From a virus, in the IMG/VR virus record IMGVR_UViG_3300017769_000001, positions 32,001-96,000 of that record: DNA of 64,000 bases, one strand, 5' to 3'. Position 1 is the first letter of the stretch; each line of letters opens with the position of its first letter. The position numbers and the translations under genes are program-made. The notes beneath the pieces were generated by a model. It had not been told where the DNA came from, searched no databases, and saw only the letters and a program-made list of their open reading frames with translations. Below are positions 18,721 through 50,615 of this stretch, piece by piece.

Positions 18721-19319
18721 TATAGTAGCTCCAGTCTCAGTTTTATAAATGAATGATCAATGTCGCTCATCGTAACATAATCGTGATCGAATGTTAATTC
18801 CAAATCAAGACACGAGTGATCCATGTGCGCCAAGTACTGATGATAAAAGAATTGCGAATACAAACTCTCCGAATGGAACTTATCGTAAGAGTTTAGAAAC
18901 TTACTATACAATTCACCGACCATGATCGTCATCCAATACGTCGGCTTGACTTTGAACGCCGCTACTGGTTTTTCGTATGTAAGATCTTCTCTATAGTACA
19001 TGAATGAAAGTGAGCACTGAGTTCCAGACAAATAGTCTTGATGGATCCCCACAATGAGACCTCCGATTTTGAAGAACGCCTCATGTGGAGTTCCAAAACA
19101 AATCCCGGCTCTTCTCATATCATCCATGTCTAGCCGTCTGATCTCATCAATGATACAGAATGCCTTGAACATTTCTTCGGAACCACCAAACCGCATCATA
19201 AACCGATTTGAAGTTATCAATCCGGGGAGTGCTATGTTGTATGCGAGATTGTACCAGCGCATTCTCCTGAAGAACTTCTTTCTCCGGTTCGTGAATATCG
19301 TCTGGTCGTTAAGATCCAT
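18720..19319 (-). CDS. Hypothetical protein (C-terminal Leu-helix group)
   Basis: Operon packing. Confidence 0.65.
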   Translation of the reverse strand: MDLNDQTIFTNRRKKFFRRMRWYNLAYNIALPGLITSNRFMMRFGGSEEMFKAFCIIDEIRRLDMDDMRRAGICFGTPHEAFFKIGGLIVGIHQDYLSGTQCSLSFMYYREDLTYEKPVAAFKVKPTYWMTIMVGELYSKFLNSYDKFHSESLYSQFFYHQYLAHMDHSCLDLELTFDHDYVTMSDIDHSFIKLRLELL

Positions 19320-19320
19320 T

Positions 19321-19863
19321 TTACAAATCCTTCAGTTCATTCATGATGAAAGCTTCTTCCAATGCTTGTTTGAGTTCGTTGCTGTCTTCTATTGCTTCAA
19401 ACCTTTTATTGAAGAAATGTTCGTGGAATCTCAGATACCCTTTATTATTCAACGCCGAGGTTTCTTTAATGACTTTTCTAACAGCCCTCAGAGTAGGATA
19501 ATCCGGATATAATTCTCTATCGCCTAGTAGTGGATTCGGAATTGCTTTCAAAGCACCGCTAGTCCTAAAAACGGTGATCGAACCGTCGGCATATGGGTGG
19601 TTCCCATACCATATATGCACCACTAGCCGACCAATGACAATGATTTTCTGCATATTACTTTCGTAAAAATCATCTATTCTTCCTTCCGATATCAACTTCC
19701 TGATCTCGCACAACATACAATAGAGAATCATCATGGTCTCTTTGTCTTTTGATATCCTTTTGAGTCGCCGATTAAAGAATATACACATGATGAAGTCTGG
19801 TGTTAAATACTTCTGGATCTTCCACCTTCTGCATCTTGCAGGCGTCATAAAGGATAGCATCAC
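19321..19863 (-). CDS. Hypothetical protein (C-terminal Leu-helix group)
   Basis: Operon packing. Confidence 0.65.
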   Translation of the reverse strand: MMLSFMTPARCRRWKIQKYLTPDFIMCIFFNRRLKRISKDKETMMILYCMLCEIRKLISEGRIDDFYESNMQKIIVIGRLVVHIWYGNHPYADGSITVFRTSGALKAIPNPLLGDRELYPDYPTLRAVRKVIKETSALNNKGYLRFHEHFFNKRFEAIEDSNELKQALEEAFIMNELKDL

Positions 19864-20129
19864 CGACCCCGGATAGTTTTAGTGATCTCCGCTTCTGCTT
19901 GCTTCACTGCGTCGATCAGCTGGTTGAGATTCTGTGCTGCTTCCATCGCATTCATACACTCTCGCTTCATCAGCTTGGTGGCAATTGCCTCGTATGAAGG
20001 ATGAAACGTCCTTGACTCAGTGATCTTATCATCGCCATCACGAGTCTTTCCGACCTTACGCTCAACCAAAATGAAGTCGTGTTCTCTCGGGCCTACTTCA
20101 ATAGCCCACTTCTCATTGAGTTCGATCAT
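19860..20129 (-). CDS. Hypothetical protein
   Basis: GAGG RBS before MIELNEK. Confidence 0.65.
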   Translation of the reverse strand: MIELNEKWAIEVGPREHDFILVERKVGKTRDGDDKITESRTFHPSYEAIATKLMKRECMNAMEAAQNLNQLIDAVKQAEAEITKTIRGR

Positions 20130-24543: not shown

Positions 24544-24642
24544 TGGCGGAAGGACAGGGATTCGAACCCTGACGTCTACTCACGTAAACCCTCGGTTTTC
24601 AAGACCGCTGCCGCTACCCAGACTCTTTCGGCTTACCCTTCC
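24544..24642 (-). tRNA. tRNA-Ser(TGA), enlarged D loop
   Basis: Long variable arm, G73, CCA. Confidence 0.9.
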
Positions 24643-24651
24643 AAAATTAAA

Positions 24652-25646: not shown

Positions 25647-25721
25647 TGGAGCGGGTAATCGGTCTCGAACCGATCCACGGAGGGTGGAAGCCTCCCGCTC
25701 TACCAACTGAGCTATACCCGC
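25647..25721 (-). tRNA. tRNA-Gly(TCC), first tRNA of the operon
   Basis: Cloverleaf, U73, CCA. Confidence 0.9.
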
Positions 25722-25740
25722 AAAACTTTTTCAACTTCCT

Positions 25741-25775
25741 AAAACGAGAAAACCCTTCTTGTTTGAAGGGCTTTC
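25741..25775 (-). terminator. Attenuator terminator (3:4 hairpin)
   Basis: GAAAGCCCTTC-AAACAA-GAAGGGTTTTC then TCGTTTT, 20 nt before tRNA-Gly. Confidence 0.75.
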
Positions 25776-25806
25776 AGAAAACTTACGTGTGTTTACTCTA
25801 CGTACG

Positions 25807-25923
25807 CTAGAAGCCCTTAATCTCTACCTCGCGATCACTCCAAATATTAAAGCCGAGCGACATCGCGGGATTATGATATCCCTTTGCCGGTTGTGCTTTT
25901 GTGTTGGAGTTCATAGTAAACAT
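25807..25923 (-). CDS. 38-aa leader peptide of the tRNA operon (not in ORF track)
   Basis: MFTMNSNTKAQPAKGYHNPAMSLGFNIWSDREVEIKGF*; 19 different amino acids; last codons complementary to the terminator 5' arm. Confidence 0.75.
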   Translation of the reverse strand: MFTMNSNTKAQPAKGYHNPAMSLGFNIWSDREVEIKGF

Positions 25924-25987
25924 ACTTAAATTCTCTGAGTATTCCCTTAGTTAGTGTTGAAAAACTATCAAAATTTAGACCTACTGA

Positions 25988-26085
25988 AAAATTTTAGATA
26001 CCTCTGACTAGGAGTCGAACCTAGATCGAAAACGCGAAGCGAATTCCGGCATACCGTTAACCGCACCAAAGGCATCTAAAATTTT
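25988..26085 (-). ncRNA. tRNA mimic with ~19-bp extended acceptor helix
   Basis: AAAATTTTAGATGCCTTTG/CAGAGGTATCTAAAATTTT; CTAGG-TTCGACT-CCTAG. Confidence 0.6.
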
Positions 26086-26243
26086 ACCTGAATGAAGGAC
26101 TCGAACCTCCATATCTACATTACGTTGCACTGTCAGTAGAAAGGTAGCTTTCGCCATGAGTGCAGAGTCGCTTATTAGTATTACACGACCCATTCATATC
26201 GGCTTAGGCCACACCCCCGTATACCAGTTCCGGCAATTCAGGT
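26086..26243 (-). ncRNA. 158-nt tRNA-like RNA with a large insert in place of the anticodon arm
   Basis: ACCTGAAT/ATTCAGGT, D arm CCG-GAACTGGTATA-CGG, T arm GGAGG-TTCGAGT-CCTTC. Confidence 0.65.
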
Positions 26244-26244
26244 G

Positions 26245-27130
26245 TTGGGTTTCGCATTCAACGTAACGTACAAGTAGCCGGTATTACTCGTTACTATCAA
26301 ATGCAGCTCGTTCCTATTGTACTACTTTCTTGGTAATCCACCCACAGCTTCCCAAGTTTCTTTGCTCCCCGGCCTTTTCACGCTCCGCTTTCACGGCTAC
26401 GGTCGAATCTCCGGTTTAGATCCCAATCCAACCCTTTCCGGGTTTGGCTCTAAGGGATCGTTCTGCCTATTCTCTCTATTTAGATAGCCACAATTGGCTC
26501 TGTCATCTATGAATGGAGACATCAGGCTTCGCTCCAATTTTATGGTGACGGGTTCTTCCTGCCTAAACCGTGTGATTAGCACGTTCACCATCTTCGTTAG
26601 ATCCGCCTCTCAAGGTCGCAGACCAGTAACCAAACACGCTACTCTAATAGGCTTCAATCATCCGGATGGCCGTCCGTCGATTTTCCACCTGTCTGAGCCG
26701 AACATACCCCGATATGCCAACCCAGACCCCTTTCGGGATGAAACGACCCTTTCAGGCCGATCCATTAAACGCTTTCGAGTATACGCTTGTAACGAGTATT
26801 CGGGGATCACAATATTCATCCCTACGATGATAGCATGATCGAATGTTAGTCATACTTCCCAGAACCGTTACCTTAACTGGGTAAGGAAGTCCAGAAACCA
26901 ACTTGGCGGTTGGCTCTTAAACACCCTTTATACTGGATCGGCTTTGTGCGCCAACACAACTACCAATCCGACACCGTTGTTGGGAGTAACTCAGCCAACG
27001 ACTTCTAACCTCCCTAGTGCCCTCACTATAAACAACCGCCTAAGCAATCATTTATGAAGCCCGTATGTAAGACTCCAATTTTACCTCCGGTGATCTCGGA
27101 GGGTTTCACCGCCGGGTTCCCCCGACTGCG
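26245..27130 (-). ncRNA. Giant structured ncRNA (~885 nt), GOLLD/ROOL-like class
   Basis: No credible ORF, many GNRA-capped stems, complementary loops, dedicated promoter, next to tRNAs. Confidence 0.7.
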
Positions 27131-27136
27131 TAATCT

Positions 27137-27165
27137 ATTCTATTAAAGGCTCACTCCATTGTCAA
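27137..27165 (-). promoter_or_regulatory. sigma70 promoter of the giant RNA / tRNA operon
   Basis: TTGACA-17-TAGAAT; a second TTGACA-18-TATAAT lies at 27277-27248. Confidence 0.8.
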
Positions 27166-27304
27166 CACCTTTTTCGAATTTTTTCGTTGATTCGATTCAG
27201 AAGACTTATGCCATGCCTTGTCTGCTTCCTAAGATCAACGTTTGAAAATTATAAGCTCTAGTTAGTGTTCGTGTCAACCAAAATTTGAAGAAAATTTGAA
27301 AATT

Positions 27305-27637
27305 TTACGATCCCATTCGGATTGCACACTGAACAAGAAGATCTATCACATCCTTAATATCAAAGGCGAACGATATGTCGGATGCTCCGAAGTTCTTCTC
27401 AGTGAACTCAAACAGCTTCTCAGTTCTTCGCTCTACAACGAGACTCCCATTGGTCACACTCTTTCCGACGTCCAATGAAAGAACCCTGCCAATAAAGGCT
27501 GCAATTCTTGTTTCTGGCGTTACTTCTGAGATTAATGCAGACTCATGATATATACTAGCGATACGAGTTCCATTGAATCTGTCAACAACAGAAACCCAGC
27601 TACCACGCAGAACCAGTCTGTTGTTACTCATAACCAA
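27305..27637 (-). CDS. Hypothetical protein
   Basis: Operon packing. Confidence 0.6.
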   Translation of the reverse strand: MVMSNNRLVLRGSWVSVVDRFNGTRIASIYHESALISEVTPETRIAAFIGRVLSLDVGKSVTNGSLVVERRTEKLFEFTEKNFGASDISFAFDIKDVIDLLVQCAIRMGS

Positions 27638-28901: not shown

Positions 28902-30917
28902 TTAAAATTTCACTTTGATTGTACGGTTGAACTTACCACTCACACGACAGATGATAGCATCTTTCTTCGTAGAAGAAAAGCCCAAACCACTAAGCTGATC
29001 TTCGGAGTGTTTCGCCTTCAGGCGAGATCCTAGAACCTCAAACACTTTACGGTGTTTGTTAAGGTCAACACTCAGGAACTCATTGTAGAATCCGCGAGCG
29101 TCTTCAGGGTTCTTACAGCCTTCCAGAATGAAGAAGGTATGTCGGTTGCCGATCCCCTTCTGACCGTCCCAGTAGTTCGGAGAATTCATCACCATAGAAA
29201 CCTTTCGGAAGTCATTTGACCGAATGCCCCAGAAATCCTTCGGCTTCTGGCTCGACTGAAGGTTGCTGATCATCTTCATTTCACCGGTACGGTGGTTGAA
29301 GTCGAACTCTGCTACCTTGATACGACCTTTCAGCTCCTGATCGTAACTGAATGTAAAAGTTTCACCATTACATTCAATCTCAACGGAGAACCCGTAGTCT
29401 TTCTTCTCCCGTTGACGGAACTGATGAACCACGACGACGTATCGCCCTGTCTCCATCTTACTGCGTTCAGGCCATGTGATATTCTCTACAGGACTCGGAA
29501 CAGTGAACGAAGCGTTCGCATCGACGTCAAGATTGCCACGTGTTTTTCGGTTCAATTCATCACCGAAGTAGATTTCATTGCCACTTGGCTCAATCACATG
29601 AAGATCGAGGTCATCTTTGTTGTCCCACGACAGAGAACAACGGAGATACCCATCGACCTTACCACCGGCCTTCTTCACTCGCTCTTTGATGGAGTCTGCA
29701 ACTTCACCGTTATACGACCATGAGAAGTTGTTATCCCACTTAAACATACACGGAGACGTCTTATCCACCGGGGCGATCAGGCTCATCAGGTTGTTTTCAT
29801 GTTTGTTTTCAACCATGACCTCAACAGATTCTGCCTTTGGAAGGATCGACTCCAGAAAATGATCAATCGAAACTTCTTCGATCTTATCGAAAGACTGTTT
29901 CTTGACAGCGGTGCTTGCGAGTTCTTCAAAGATCCCGCCTCCCATCGCAGGTTTGACGGATCGATCTGCAAACAACACGTTGTTGATTGTCAGGTCTTCT
30001 GCCGTTGCAAACCGACGGTTGAGAGATTCCTCCATCCCCAGCCGTGTCACCGTTTTTTCAGCTTCCTTGATCATTCCTTTCGTGATCAGAGCAGTCGGAC
30101 GGCGATAATTCTCCGGTGCCACTTTGGTCTCGAACGCCTTTACGGCTGTTTCCAGATCAACACCATCACTCAGATCAACCAGAAGCGTTCCGATGACAGT
30201 ATTCCGGATCCGAGCAGAGCCGCCCATCTTAACGGCATTCTCCCAAAGGAAGATATCTTTCTTCACTCGTGACCGAAGCTTTCCGTACTCAGCCTGCAAC
30301 CGAGACAGGGTTTCCAGAGTCGGCTTGTGCTCTTGACCTCGATACAGAGAATTCTGGTCGATTAATTCAAGAACCAGCTCGACAGATTCTTTGCTGATCT
30401 CTTCCAGACTGCGTTTCAGTACAGACTTCGTTTCCCGGACGTTTCCAGTCACAGACCCCGGATCTGCATTCACCAGACGACTTGGCAGTTTGTGACTGAA
30501 GTGCGTGAATCGGAATTCAGTACCAGAATCTTCGTCTTTAACGATTGATAATCCGGCAGCGCCGACGATGCTGTCATGGCAGAAGTAAAGGTTCGCAATT
30601 GGCTTGCTGAGAACGTACTCGTTCATCTTCTTCGCAACTTCTTCATAGAAATCGCCAGTCTTTACATCCCAGATCGTAAGCAGTTTGCCGTTATCGACAA
30701 CAACCATGTCGCCGATGTTTCGAACGAAGTGTTTGCAGCAGTTACAATCGTGTTCGGTGCGTTCACGGAACATCGGATTGGTTCCTTCCGGAAACGCAGA
30801 AAGATAAACTTCCCAGAGTTCATCGCGAGTAACGTCAACGCGAAATGCGGTTCCTTTTTTCAGGATATGAGAAACACGTGCGTCGACTGCGTTGCTGAAT
30901 CGTTTGAATTGATCCAT
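28902..30917 (-). CDS. Conserved large phage protein with a YfaP/DUF2135-like domain
   Basis: HDCNCCKHF, KVAP.NYRRP, LSW...DDLDLHV.EP, LDVD.N...PVENI.W. Confidence 0.75.
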   Translation of the reverse strand: MDQFKRFSNAVDARVSHILKKGTAFRVDVTRDELWEVYLSAFPEGTNPMFRERTEHDCNCCKHFVRNIGDMVVVDNGKLLTIWDVKTGDFYEEVAKKMNEYVLSKPIANLYFCHDSIVGAAGLSIVKDEDSGTEFRFTHFSHKLPSRLVNADPGSVTGNVRETKSVLKRSLEEISKESVELVLELIDQNSLYRGQEHKPTLETLSRLQAEYGKLRSRVKKDIFLWENAVKMGGSARIRNTVIGTLLVDLSDGVDLETAVKAFETKVAPENYRRPTALITKGMIKEAEKTVTRLGMEESLNRRFATAEDLTINNVLFADRSVKPAMGGGIFEELASTAVKKQSFDKIEEVSIDHFLESILPKAESVEVMVENKHENNLMSLIAPVDKTSPCMFKWDNNFSWSYNGEVADSIKERVKKAGGKVDGYLRCSLSWDNKDDLDLHVIEPSGNEIYFGDELNRKTRGNLDVDANASFTVPSPVENITWPERSKMETGRYVVVVHQFRQREKKDYGFSVEIECNGETFTFSYDQELKGRIKVAEFDFNHRTGEMKMISNLQSSQKPKDFWGIRSNDFRKVSMVMNSPNYWDGQKGIGNRHTFFILEGCKNPEDARGFYNEFLSVDLNKHRKVFEVLGSRLKAKHSEDQLSGLGFSSTKKDAIICRVSGKFNRTIKVKF

Positions 30918-43952: not shown

Positions 43953-44309
43953 TTAACGAATGTCCCAGCAATCTGACGTACTCTTGTCAACTTCCAGAAC
44001 GTATGGCTTCAATTCGGATTGAATGCGTTTCGCTTGCCTGATTCGGCAGCGATCGCTGTCAGTACAAGAAATCAAGCCGCTTCCTAGACGATAGTAGACG
44101 TCCAGCAGCTCGGCGTCATTCCGGATTTCAATGACAGTCTTATTCCGCTCCAGAATCTGATACGTATGGTGTTCTGGACTGATGACATTCGGATGCGTTG
44201 GATCGGCTTTGAACTCGGCAACGGCATCCCAGTATGCCGGTTCTTCGGAATCACTGAAAGTTTCAATGAAATCGGCAGTAGCCTTGACTTTGATAGGATA
44301 GTTGTTCAT
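43953..44309 (-). CDS. Early hypothetical protein
   Basis: Conserved AAGGGAAAAGGT-ATG leader. Confidence 0.7.
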   Translation of the reverse strand: MNNYPIKVKATADFIETFSDSEEPAYWDAVAEFKADPTHPNVISPEHHTYQILERNKTVIEIRNDAELLDVYYRLGSGLISCTDSDRCRIRQAKRIQSELKPYVLEVDKSTSDCWDIR

Positions 44310-49049: not shown

Positions 49050-49655
49050 GACAGCACACTTCGGAGAGCTGCCGCCTAACATAAGCGGCAACCCGAAATC
49101 AACTGTTTTGGCTAACTTGCTCGTTAACAGCTTGCCACACTGACACTATTTCCCGCCTATGAGATACACCAGACTGCCAGCGGGAATAGCCGATATAGTG
49201 ACAGTCTGGCTGAATTCCGCGTTTCAGCCTTCAGCGGATAGTCTCGAACCGGTTTTGTGTGTTAGGTCATTTACAAGGACACACGAACCCCTTGAACGTA
49301 AATTTACAGTTTGGGTGCATTGAAATCATACACTTACACTGAAGGCTGTTACCGCCTGAGAGTGACATTCTCCGGTTAAGAGACTATCCGCCAGCATGTA
49401 AGATCGACACCTTTTCAGGCGCAACTGTGCCACGCTAACACATTTGCCTTTACTCCGTTCCAGTTTGTTACCGGTGGCCGCAACTATAACAGAGCCAGAA
49501 TCATTAGGTTACTAAAAGCGCCAAAAACTCACTTTCACTTTCGCCGACATTCATGGCCTAGCAAGTACTAGCCGCACGTTCTGAGTGCGATACAGTCCTA
49601 GACGTAACTCCCCTTCGGGAATGGGATTCCACCGTAGTGATACCCGTTGTCTCCA
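49050..49655 (-). ncRNA. ~600-nt structured leader / ncRNA
   Basis: No ORF; long-range stems and two possible pseudoknots; follows promoter and boxA. Confidence 0.6.
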
Positions 49656-50133
49656 AATTTTTAAAGAACGTTGGCGTTTCAGCCTGTGAACCATTATACA
49701 GCGTTGGTTCCCGTTGTCAAGTTTCGTTTTAAAGTTTTTTCGGTTTCCCGAAAAATCGAATCTTGATTTTGCCGTTTCAGTCTATCAGACTTGATCTGTC
49801 GTCGTCAATGCTTTTTTTGCCTTTTTGCGCGGTCTGTCGTTTGGATAACATGCCGAAACAGTACCCTATCCTAACCTGCCACCTGATAACTATTATGTAT
49901 TGTCAGGTAGTGCAAAACGACTGGCATTGATAATTTAAGCCTAGTCTAATCGAATGATCTGGCTATGTCAAGATCAAAACGAAACTCAATTTTTAAAGAA
50001 CGGTGCCGTATTGGCATGGCTTCACTTTACTGAAAGCCGTTTCCCTTGTCAAGCGATTTTTTGCTTAACTCCGCTGGCGTTGTTTGCCGCGTTTCCATGG
50101 TTCCCATGATACGGATTTCAAAACGAAAGTCAA
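49656..50133 (-). promoter_or_regulatory. Five tandem sigma70 early promoters with two identical boxA-like 15-mers
   Basis: TTGACA-16-TATAAT (49720), TTGACG-18-TAGACT (49808), TTGACA-17-TAGACT (49971), TTGACA-17-TAAAGT (50052), TTGACT-16-TATCAT (50133); CGTTCTTTAAAAATT at 49656-49670 and 49988-50002. Confidence 0.8.
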
Positions 50134-50134
50134 A

Positions 50135-50490
50135 ATTTTTATTTCCCTTTCAAATCAACAACTTACAACGATACGTCACGTAACTTATTGATTTTCTTAG
50201 AAAAAATAATTTTAAAATTTTGCGTTTTTTCTGTCCGGGGTTCTTGCTTCATTTATATGCAAATCGTGGGCGCGATTTTCTCAAAATTTTGTTTGGTGGT
50301 CAAATTAATTTTAGTTAATTTTTGTTAAGTCTTTGTTTTTATTAGGGATTTTCTTTTTCCTGTGGGTTATCCACTGGGGTAAATCTTGGTGTGTGGATAA
50401 GTGTGTAACTGTGGAAACCCTGTGTATAAGTGTGTTTTCGCGGGGGTTTCACACTACACTTCACACTACACTTCACACCACACTTCACAC
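50135..50490. other. oriC-like locus: IHF sites, AT-rich tract, DnaA boxes, 12-bp direct repeats
   Basis: WATCAANNNNTTR at 50153-50165 (+) and 50181-50193 (-); TTATCCACT 50367, TGTGGATAA 50392, TGTGGAAAC 50410, TGTGTATAA 50421. Confidence 0.65.
50448..50490. repeat. 3.6 x 12-bp tandem repeat TTCACACYACAC
   Basis: Direct reading. Confidence 0.9.
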
Positions 50491-50615
50491 GAGAAGATTC
50501 CTCGAATAATCGGCGCTTCGCGCCGACCTCAAATCGTTGCACAGATGTCCTTCATGTGTCAGCAAAATGACGCTTCCTACTAAATAAAGGGTATCAAACT
50601 AATACAAATTTTGCT

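Follow-up and report, generated by a model that had tools for sequence, protein, structure and literature searches.

The window analyzed here is a 64-kb stretch of DNA that spans bases 32001-96000 of a viral record. The record is 148,739 bp long, has direct terminal repeats and comes from an uncultured marine phage (JGI sample 3300017756, contig Ga0181382_1000017). Its minus strand carries an array of 19 tRNA genes that runs from 25721 to 20829, and ahead of the first of these genes lies the stretch of about 0.89 kb that is the subject of this work (Table 1). Across the whole window there are only three ORF-free gaps of at least 450 nt. The G+C content of the stretch is 0.49, which is the level of the tRNA genes, compared to 0.41 in its flanks. 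Three further tRNA genes (Met, Arg and Leu) are found on the plus strand at 19233-19980 of the genome, outside the window and distant from the main array, so that the phage has at least 22 tRNAs with a standard tRNA-Arg among them. On the other side of the stretch is the gene of a 671-aa protein, whose top identities are 49-56% to proteins of viral contigs, metagenome contigs and GenBank phages. The best named relatives are myoviruses of the Vequintavirinae type, of 135-150 kb, and a marine Vibrio phage. The phage lineage is a distant relative of these Vequintavirinae-type myoviruses and does not belong to the Demerecviridae.

Two other regions of the window have features of their own. A second ORF-free stretch of about 630 nt (49060-49720, minus strand) lies behind a perfect TTGACA-16-TATAAT promoter at 49720-49693. 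It folds with a z of -3.9 and has no Rfam match at the gathering score, the best weak hit having an E-value of 0.73. A boxA-like CGTTCTTTAAAAA occurs about 20 nt after the -10 hexamer of this promoter, and the same motif is also seen after the promoter at 50052-50024 and after tRNA-Gly (25626). This stretch may be another long structured leader or non-coding RNA of the leftward operon. Next to it, the region 49940-50500 resembles a control or origin region that separates divergent operons: its minus strand has another five promoter-like sites, the DnaA-box-like TTATCCAC and TGTGGATAA occur near 50365-50400, and TTCACACTACAC is present in 3.6 tandem copies at 50448-50490.

Table 1. Features at the head of the tRNA array, in window coordinates and in order from the 671-aa gene toward the tRNAs.
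Feature	Position	Strand	Details
671-aa neighbor protein	28902-30917	minus	phrog_1735
Promoter P1	27248-27277	minus	TTGACA-18-TATAAT; 12/12 consensus matches; A/T-rich tract upstream
Hairpin of ~55 nt between P1 and P2	27185-27240	minus	core common to the nearest relative, G003
Promoter P2	27137-27165	minus	TTGACA-17-TAGAAT; 11/12 consensus matches
Candidate ncRNA	26244-27130	minus	~887 nt from P2, ~1.0 kb from P1
Two 5' hairpins	27084-27126	minus	GUCGGG-GGAA-CCCGGC and CCUCCG-AGAUCAC-CGGAGG; pair probability 0.97-0.99
12-bp hairpin	27028-27055	minus	AUAAAUGAUUGC / GCGGUUGUUUAU; probability 0.94; G-U pairs form on the minus strand only
Four-hairpin domain	26830-26972	minus	includes the UUGGCG and CGCCAA loops; z -4.57, 0/200 shuffles
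tRNA-Ser-derived block	26726-26767	minus	36/43 aligned columns (~84%) match tRNA-Ser(GCU) at 25440-25352
Closed multi-branch domain D2	26596-26766	minus	56 pairs; z -4.77, 0/200 shuffles; helix probabilities 0.83-0.99
Closed domain D3	26410-26572	minus	includes the second AAAAUUGGAG; a 41-codon frame starts here; z -4.08, 0/200 shuffles
3' hairpin	26254-26304	minus	19 pairs; probability 0.78-0.84
tRNA-shaped element 1	26086-26243	minus	identified from the fold
tRNA-shaped element 2	25988-26085	minus	~20-bp helix capped by a T arm; fold z -4.64
First downstream terminator-like hairpin	25748-25775	minus	tRNA-Gly begins 27 nt later
tRNA-Gly	25647-25721	minus	first tRNA of the array

The stretch had been described in an initial annotation, made from the letters alone, as about 885 nt with no credible ORF, and this description holds. 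The longest sense ORF in the ~887 nt encodes 64 aa, compared to 61 ± 18 aa in shuffled sequence, which is the random expectation. A 114-aa ORF on the antisense strand is equalled in 10% of shuffles of that strand and is without a ribosome-binding site. Searches of 5.8 billion clustered and 1.84 billion representative proteins gave no homologue of either ORF, and the 64-aa ORF found only itself. Ten stop-to-stop frames of the region gave no match in Pfam or PHROGs, and tblastn of all frames against the related loci gave none either. A pseudogene or coding remnant can be rejected, as the protein, Pfam, PHROG and tblastn searches return nothing but the sequence itself. Protein-level conservation of the short ORFs, which the initial annotation had named as a finding that would speak against a non-coding RNA, was thus looked for and not found.

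The promoter TTGACA-17-TAGAAT of the initial annotation is present as P2, and it is the second of a pair. P2 is located 110 nt behind P1, and it has an A-rich, UP-like tract of its own at 27166-27184. The start sites would be near 27130 for P2 and near 27241 for P1. Tandem promoters with A/T-rich upstream tracts are a typical arrangement of stable-RNA operons. On the minus strand there is no terminator-like site between the promoters and the hairpin at 25775-25748. A 38-codon ORF (25923-25807, minus strand) precedes this hairpin, and there is no promoter between the hairpin and the first tRNA. The ORF and hairpin together (25748-25923) may act as a gate, in the manner of an attenuator, that separates the large RNA from the tRNA array.

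Downstream, the candidate RNA abuts the first of two elements that have the shape of a tRNA. Element 1 has a 7-bp acceptor stem (CCUGAAU/AUUCAGG) and a GGUUCGAGUCC T arm, and about 100 nt take the place of the anticodon arm. Both elements have perfect T arms, lack a normal anticodon arm and receive no score from the tRNA model RF00005. The 5' end of element 1 is a putative RNase P site, as suggested by the modeled fold, at which the 3' end of the large RNA would be formed.

The folding energy of the stretch is lower than expected from its composition, and the effect depends on the strand. The whole 891 nt fold at -302 kcal/mol compared to -272 ± 6 kcal/mol in shuffles, which gives the minus strand a z of -4.9, compared to -1.7 for the plus strand. 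In a separate control run the target reached -3.9, the lowest z among 13 windows of 891 nt. However, this energy signal is only moderate, because two coding control windows of the same length in the same genome reach -3.2 and -2.8. Arbitrary 160-nt windows inside the region are unremarkable, with z values from +0.6 to -3.4 only. Three sub-domains give z values of -4.1 to -4.8 and none of 200 shuffles is as stable, but these values are somewhat favored because the domain boundaries were picked from the fold itself. Hairpins capped by GNRA loops are in excess: four are observed, compared to a mean of 0.32 and a maximum of three in 60 shuffles, so that none of the 60 reaches the observed count. 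A long-range helix that would join the two ends (27078-27056 with 26351-26330) has a thermodynamic probability of only about 0.7.

The stems listed in the initial annotation are all found in this fold. The four of them (27102-27097/27089-27084, 27055-27044/27039-27028, CCC-GAAA-GGG at 26737-26728 and CCGU-GAAA-GCGG at 26396-26385) have pair probabilities of 0.85-0.99 in the ensemble. Two further features fared less well. The loops UUGGCG (26954-26949) and CGCCAA (26908-26903), which had been proposed to form a kissing pair, do exist and are complementary, but a complement of at least 6 nt appears in 19% of loop shuffles and the pairing is possible only if one of the hairpins opens its closing U-G pair. 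Similarly, the repeated 10-mer AAAATTGGAG does occur at 27082 and 26541, but a direct repeat of at least 10 nt is seen in 31% of shuffles. Both are at chance level and should be dropped as evidence.

One part of the fold has a recognizable origin. The tRNA-Ser-derived block aligns to the tRNA-Ser(GCU) gene of the same array over the end of the D loop, the anticodon arm and the variable-arm hairpin, including an identical 15-mer (CAUCCCGAAAGGGGU), and the local alignment has a z of 10.7 against shuffles. None of the other 21 tRNAs and tRNA-like elements scores against the candidate RNA. The anticodon loop has been rewritten from CUGCUAA to CUGAAAG, and neither the acceptor stem nor the T arm has been retained. 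A duplicate of tRNA-Ser was therefore the source of part of domain D2. Seryl-tRNA synthetase recognizes tRNA-Ser through its long variable arm, and it is thus conceivable that the block acts as a decoy or a handle.

The initial annotation had named the GOLLD and ROOL families for comparison, assigning the RNA to neither, and had pointed to a cmscan run against Rfam as a check. Against the 4227 covariance models of Rfam 15 we obtained only tRNAs at the gathering threshold, with no match to GOLLD, ROOL, an intron, RNase P RNA or tmRNA. Lowering the threshold to E ≤ 10 for 25700-27400 added four noise matches of at most 20 bits each. RF00005 has no match at E ≤ 10 across 25722-27400, where only the 43-column partial copy of tRNA-Ser is present. 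Group I and group II introns, RNase P RNA and tmRNA can be rejected, as none of their models matches and ARAGORN finds no tmRNA, and group-II-D1D4-1 (RF01998) likewise has no match in the region. The GOLLD model (RF02032, gathering score 150 bits) gives nothing at E ≤ 10 in the whole genome, and therefore the conserved 3' domain that defines GOLLD is absent. ROOL (RF03087, gathering score 99.1 bits) is rejected as well, since a search of the whole genome scored 3 candidates and gave no match at E ≤ 10. Membership of either family is accordingly not supported. Homology to RNAX of phage T5 is also rejected: a single-sequence nhmmer search gave an E-value of 0.097 over 36 nt, and a profile of 7 RNAX sequences gave a best E-value of 1, in T-arm-like segments that all lie outside the candidate RNA.

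We looked for homologues of the candidate RNA in several collections, among records other than near-identical strains of this phage. There is none by blastn in 50,697 phage records or in 42 whole related viral records, and none by nhmmer and blastn in 133 loci around homologues of the 671-aa gene in viral and metagenome contigs. With nhmmer, the 62 loci that surround homologues of a 93-aa ORF within the array matched only at the small hairpin upstream of the RNA. Single-sequence covariance models of the three sub-domains recovered only themselves in 35-46 whole records. Six scans for exact patterns, of which four covered viral contigs and two covered genome contigs, found no homologue of the RNA: one of them gave 25 random hits, none of which extends under nhmmer, and the others were empty or hit only G003, the nearest relative described below. 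As a separate observation, Vibrio phage 1.170.O._10N.261.52.C3 carries a group I intron that is missing from its annotation (RF00028, 76 bits, E 1e-17). The intron is at locus L146 4331-4612, or about 43983-44264 of MG592537.1, and overlaps the start of CDS NVP1170O_059. The annotation of this record also leaves about 2 kb empty (locus L146 33993-35958).

The nearest relative was reached through the 93-aa ORF. It is IMGVR_UViG_3300036546_000172 (G003), a record of 137,942 bp in which this ORF has 78% amino-acid identity and the tRNAs have 79-96% nucleotide identity to those of the present phage. Over the whole genomes only 2.7 kb can be aligned, at 72%. A 100-nt spacer within the array that is not a tRNA (24544-24643, minus strand) is 89% identical in G003 (locus L156 11437-11536). 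This is far above the genome average and indicates that at least one spacer RNA between the tRNAs is under constraint.

The hairpin of about 55 nt between P1 and P2 is also common to the two phages, and in a pattern scan it was confined to them. It is matched by nhmmer and blastn at locus L156 9610-9654 with 84% identity, and comparing the window sequence to L156 9604-9664 gives the core UCUUAGGA.GC.GACA.GG.AUGGCAUAAG.C.UCUGAAUCG. Its outer stem of 7-10 bp consists of entirely different bases in the two phages with the pairing kept, and an inner C-G pair is changed to A-U, which is a compensated change. In G003 the hairpin is followed by a U-run, like a terminator, whereas in this phage it sits between the two promoters. 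Within 40 nt after the hairpin G003 has a tRNA-Leu, and then a tRNA-shaped element with a 19-bp acceptor helix; the counterpart of tRNA-shaped element 2 is at L156 9820-9945. Despite these common flanking elements, nothing in G003 corresponds to the 887 nt. A 798-nt gap of G003 has no similarity to the candidate RNA and is not notably structured, and the heads of the tRNA arrays of KB57, Kashira, G003 and G038 have no comparable ORF-free leader. Given its absence from G003 and the leaderless arrays of these four relatives, the RNA would be an accessory insertion in this lineage.

Judged from its sequence, then, the stretch probably encodes a large, multi-domain, lineage-specific non-coding RNA that is co-expressed with the tRNAs and falls outside the known families. 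From the initial annotation, which saw a giant ornate RNA heading the tRNA operon, we keep the promoter-driven, non-coding, strand-specific and structure-rich 0.89 kb at the head of the operon, while the kissing pair and the repeat do not survive and membership of GOLLD or ROOL is not supported. The word ornate, if taken to mean a conserved architecture backed by covariation, is not supported either, with no homologues in the collections searched and the RNA absent from G003. The RNA may be a new class, as the initial annotation suggested, but all the structure and family evidence comes from one sequence, which is too little for a class.

The explanation we prefer is that 27130-26244 on the minus strand gives a real non-coding RNA of about 0.89 kb that is expressed with the tRNAs from tandem promoters, has several domains, is trimmed by RNase P and is specific to this lineage. 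Our confidence in this explanation as a whole is evenly balanced. We infer transcription, stability, processing and function of this RNA along the following lines. Two tandem consensus sigma-70 promoters would drive high-level transcription, with the RNA as the first part of the tRNA operon transcript, which would fold as a chain of several stable domains. One of these domains would derive from a duplicated piece of the phage's tRNA-Ser, its anticodon and variable arms. Since there is no terminator, tRNA or known processing signal inside, the RNA is expected to stay whole until RNase P cuts at the 5' end of tRNA-shaped element 1 (26243), which would make its 3' end and release an RNA of about 0.89-1.0 kb. 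It would be a lineage-specific accessory and not a core part of the operon, and by analogy it could work like T5 RNAX, GOLLD and ROOL, as an abundant stable RNA expressed along with phage tRNAs. On its role we can only speculate: it could be a stable scaffold or a decoy that engages a host or phage factor which normally binds tRNA, with the variable arm of tRNA-Ser as the candidate handle.

An unlikely but serious alternative is that the stretch is not one RNA but a string of small RNA modules that fold separately, similar to the structured spacers found between the tRNAs in this operon. RNase E or RNase III would cut the modules apart, and each would act individually or be no more than a processing spacer. 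This would fit the three sub-domains, each of which has a closing helix of its own and folds as well in isolation as within the whole RNA, and one module that is a remodeled tRNA piece. It would also fit the arrangement in G003, where the hairpin, the spacer RNA and the tRNA-shaped element found around the RNA are kept as separate pieces in a different order. However, the 887 nt have no tRNA or recognizable processing site inside, so there is no known route by which the modules would be cut apart. Additionally, each of the three modeled modules occurs only once in this genome and is absent from 35-46 other phage records, unlike what would be expected of reusable modules.

Rather improbable, in our assessment, is that the stretch is a transcribed remnant without function, made of decayed tRNA duplicates or inserted foreign DNA and heading toward deletion. 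Its absence at the same site in the closest relative, the lack of homologues in the collections searched and the tRNA-Ser copy with its acceptor stem, T arm and anticodon loop destroyed could all be read this way, and the energy z is within reach of coding controls. Against this, it is rare for a phage genome to retain 0.9 kb of useless DNA downstream of its strongest promoters. The G+C is raised to the level of the tRNA genes, and decay would not predict the difference in folding between the strands. The GNRA-capped hairpins are enriched 12-fold, to a count seen in none of the 60 shuffles, and only 1 of the 22 tRNA and tRNA-like sequences has left a trace.

It is improbable that the RNA is a full giant ornate RNA of the GOLLD/ROOL type, with one global fold and self-assembly into a multimer through an intermolecular kissing bridge between UUGGCG and CGCCAA. 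The size, the setting in a phage next to a tRNA island, the many GNRA loops able to make A-minor contacts and the exact complementarity of the two loops would suit such an assembly, and the cages of GOLLD and ROOL are held by kissing loops and A-minor contacts (10.1101/2024.12.08.627333). The loop complement is nevertheless at the chance level given above, and there is no match to either family. A more far-reaching version is a long shot in our view: the RNA would be the first one seen of a new class of giant RNAs in phages. Like GOLLD and ROOL, it would form RNA-only multimers, here through the same loops and GNRA contacts, and it would use a mimic of the tRNA-Ser variable arm to capture or decoy a host tRNA-binding factor.

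The weakest reading is that the region encodes one or more small proteins, such as a 41-codon frame from the ATG at 26524, located 9 nt after AAAATTGGAG; the same 10-mer is the ribosome-binding site of a real gene elsewhere (genome 26763) and the spacing to the ATG is acceptable, but the reading is hardly credible with ORF lengths as in random sequence, an enclosing 64-aa frame that matches only itself among the 1.84 billion representative proteins, no start codon within reach of the other copy of the 10-mer, a start region buried within a predicted helix, and only 14% of the stretch covered.

The most useful new facts here are the block derived from tRNA-Ser and the layout that resembles T5 RNAX. 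There are few large structured RNAs of bacteria and phages, and GOLLD, ROOL, OLE and raiA are each striking in architecture while their functions are still open. Another RNA in a tRNA island would strengthen the idea that such RNAs are a recurrent and convergent invention of phages. The RNA described here is unrelated in sequence to GOLLD, ROOL and T5 RNAX, and its tRNA-Ser piece offers a concrete handle on binding partners. Its value is that of a candidate known from a single sequence, and not that of an established class.

Comparison to known systems helps to place the candidate. In MALAT1-mascRNA, a eukaryotic system, RNase P forms the 3' end of the long RNA at a tRNA-like element downstream. 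The arrangement here is similar: immediately downstream of a long non-coding RNA there is an element shaped like a tRNA, in which the acceptor stem and the T arm are present and a working anticodon arm is missing. The present case is not eukaryotic, however, and the cleavage is suggested by the shape of the element only.

In kind, the candidate is like other large phage RNAs that sit next to clusters of tRNA genes. GOLLD is a large phage RNA of more than 800 nt that is often located beside tRNA islands and sometimes holds tRNAs itself, and one marine member adjoins tRNA-Met (10.1101/2024.12.08.627333). Like GOLLD, which is about 800 nt and found in phages or prophages near tRNA genes, the candidate is in a phage, is about 887 nt long and heads an array of 19 tRNAs. 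ROOL is a large structured RNA of phages and prophages that is found near tRNAs (PMC5737381), and the candidate is about 300 nt longer than the ROOL average of 581 nt.

The nearest match in layout, though not by sequence, is T5 RNAX. In the RefSeq record of T5 (NC_005859 40848-41566) rnaX is 719 nt long and annotated as 'stable RNA with unknown functions', lies directly behind promoter P16-17 and abuts tRNA-Arg, and about 525 records of T5-like phages carry RNAX. In both cases a strong promoter leads straight into an ORF-free RNA of 0.6-0.9 kb within the tRNA region, although the element that the 3' end abuts is tRNA-shaped in this phage and not a true tRNA, and the phage lineage is not that of the Demerecviridae. 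The fold z values are comparable, at -3.3 for T5 RNAX when scored in the same way and -3.9 to -4.9 for the candidate. Both RNAs also contain a piece derived from a tRNA, which in RNAX is a mimic of the acceptor and T arm and in the candidate is the anticodon and variable arm of tRNA-Ser.
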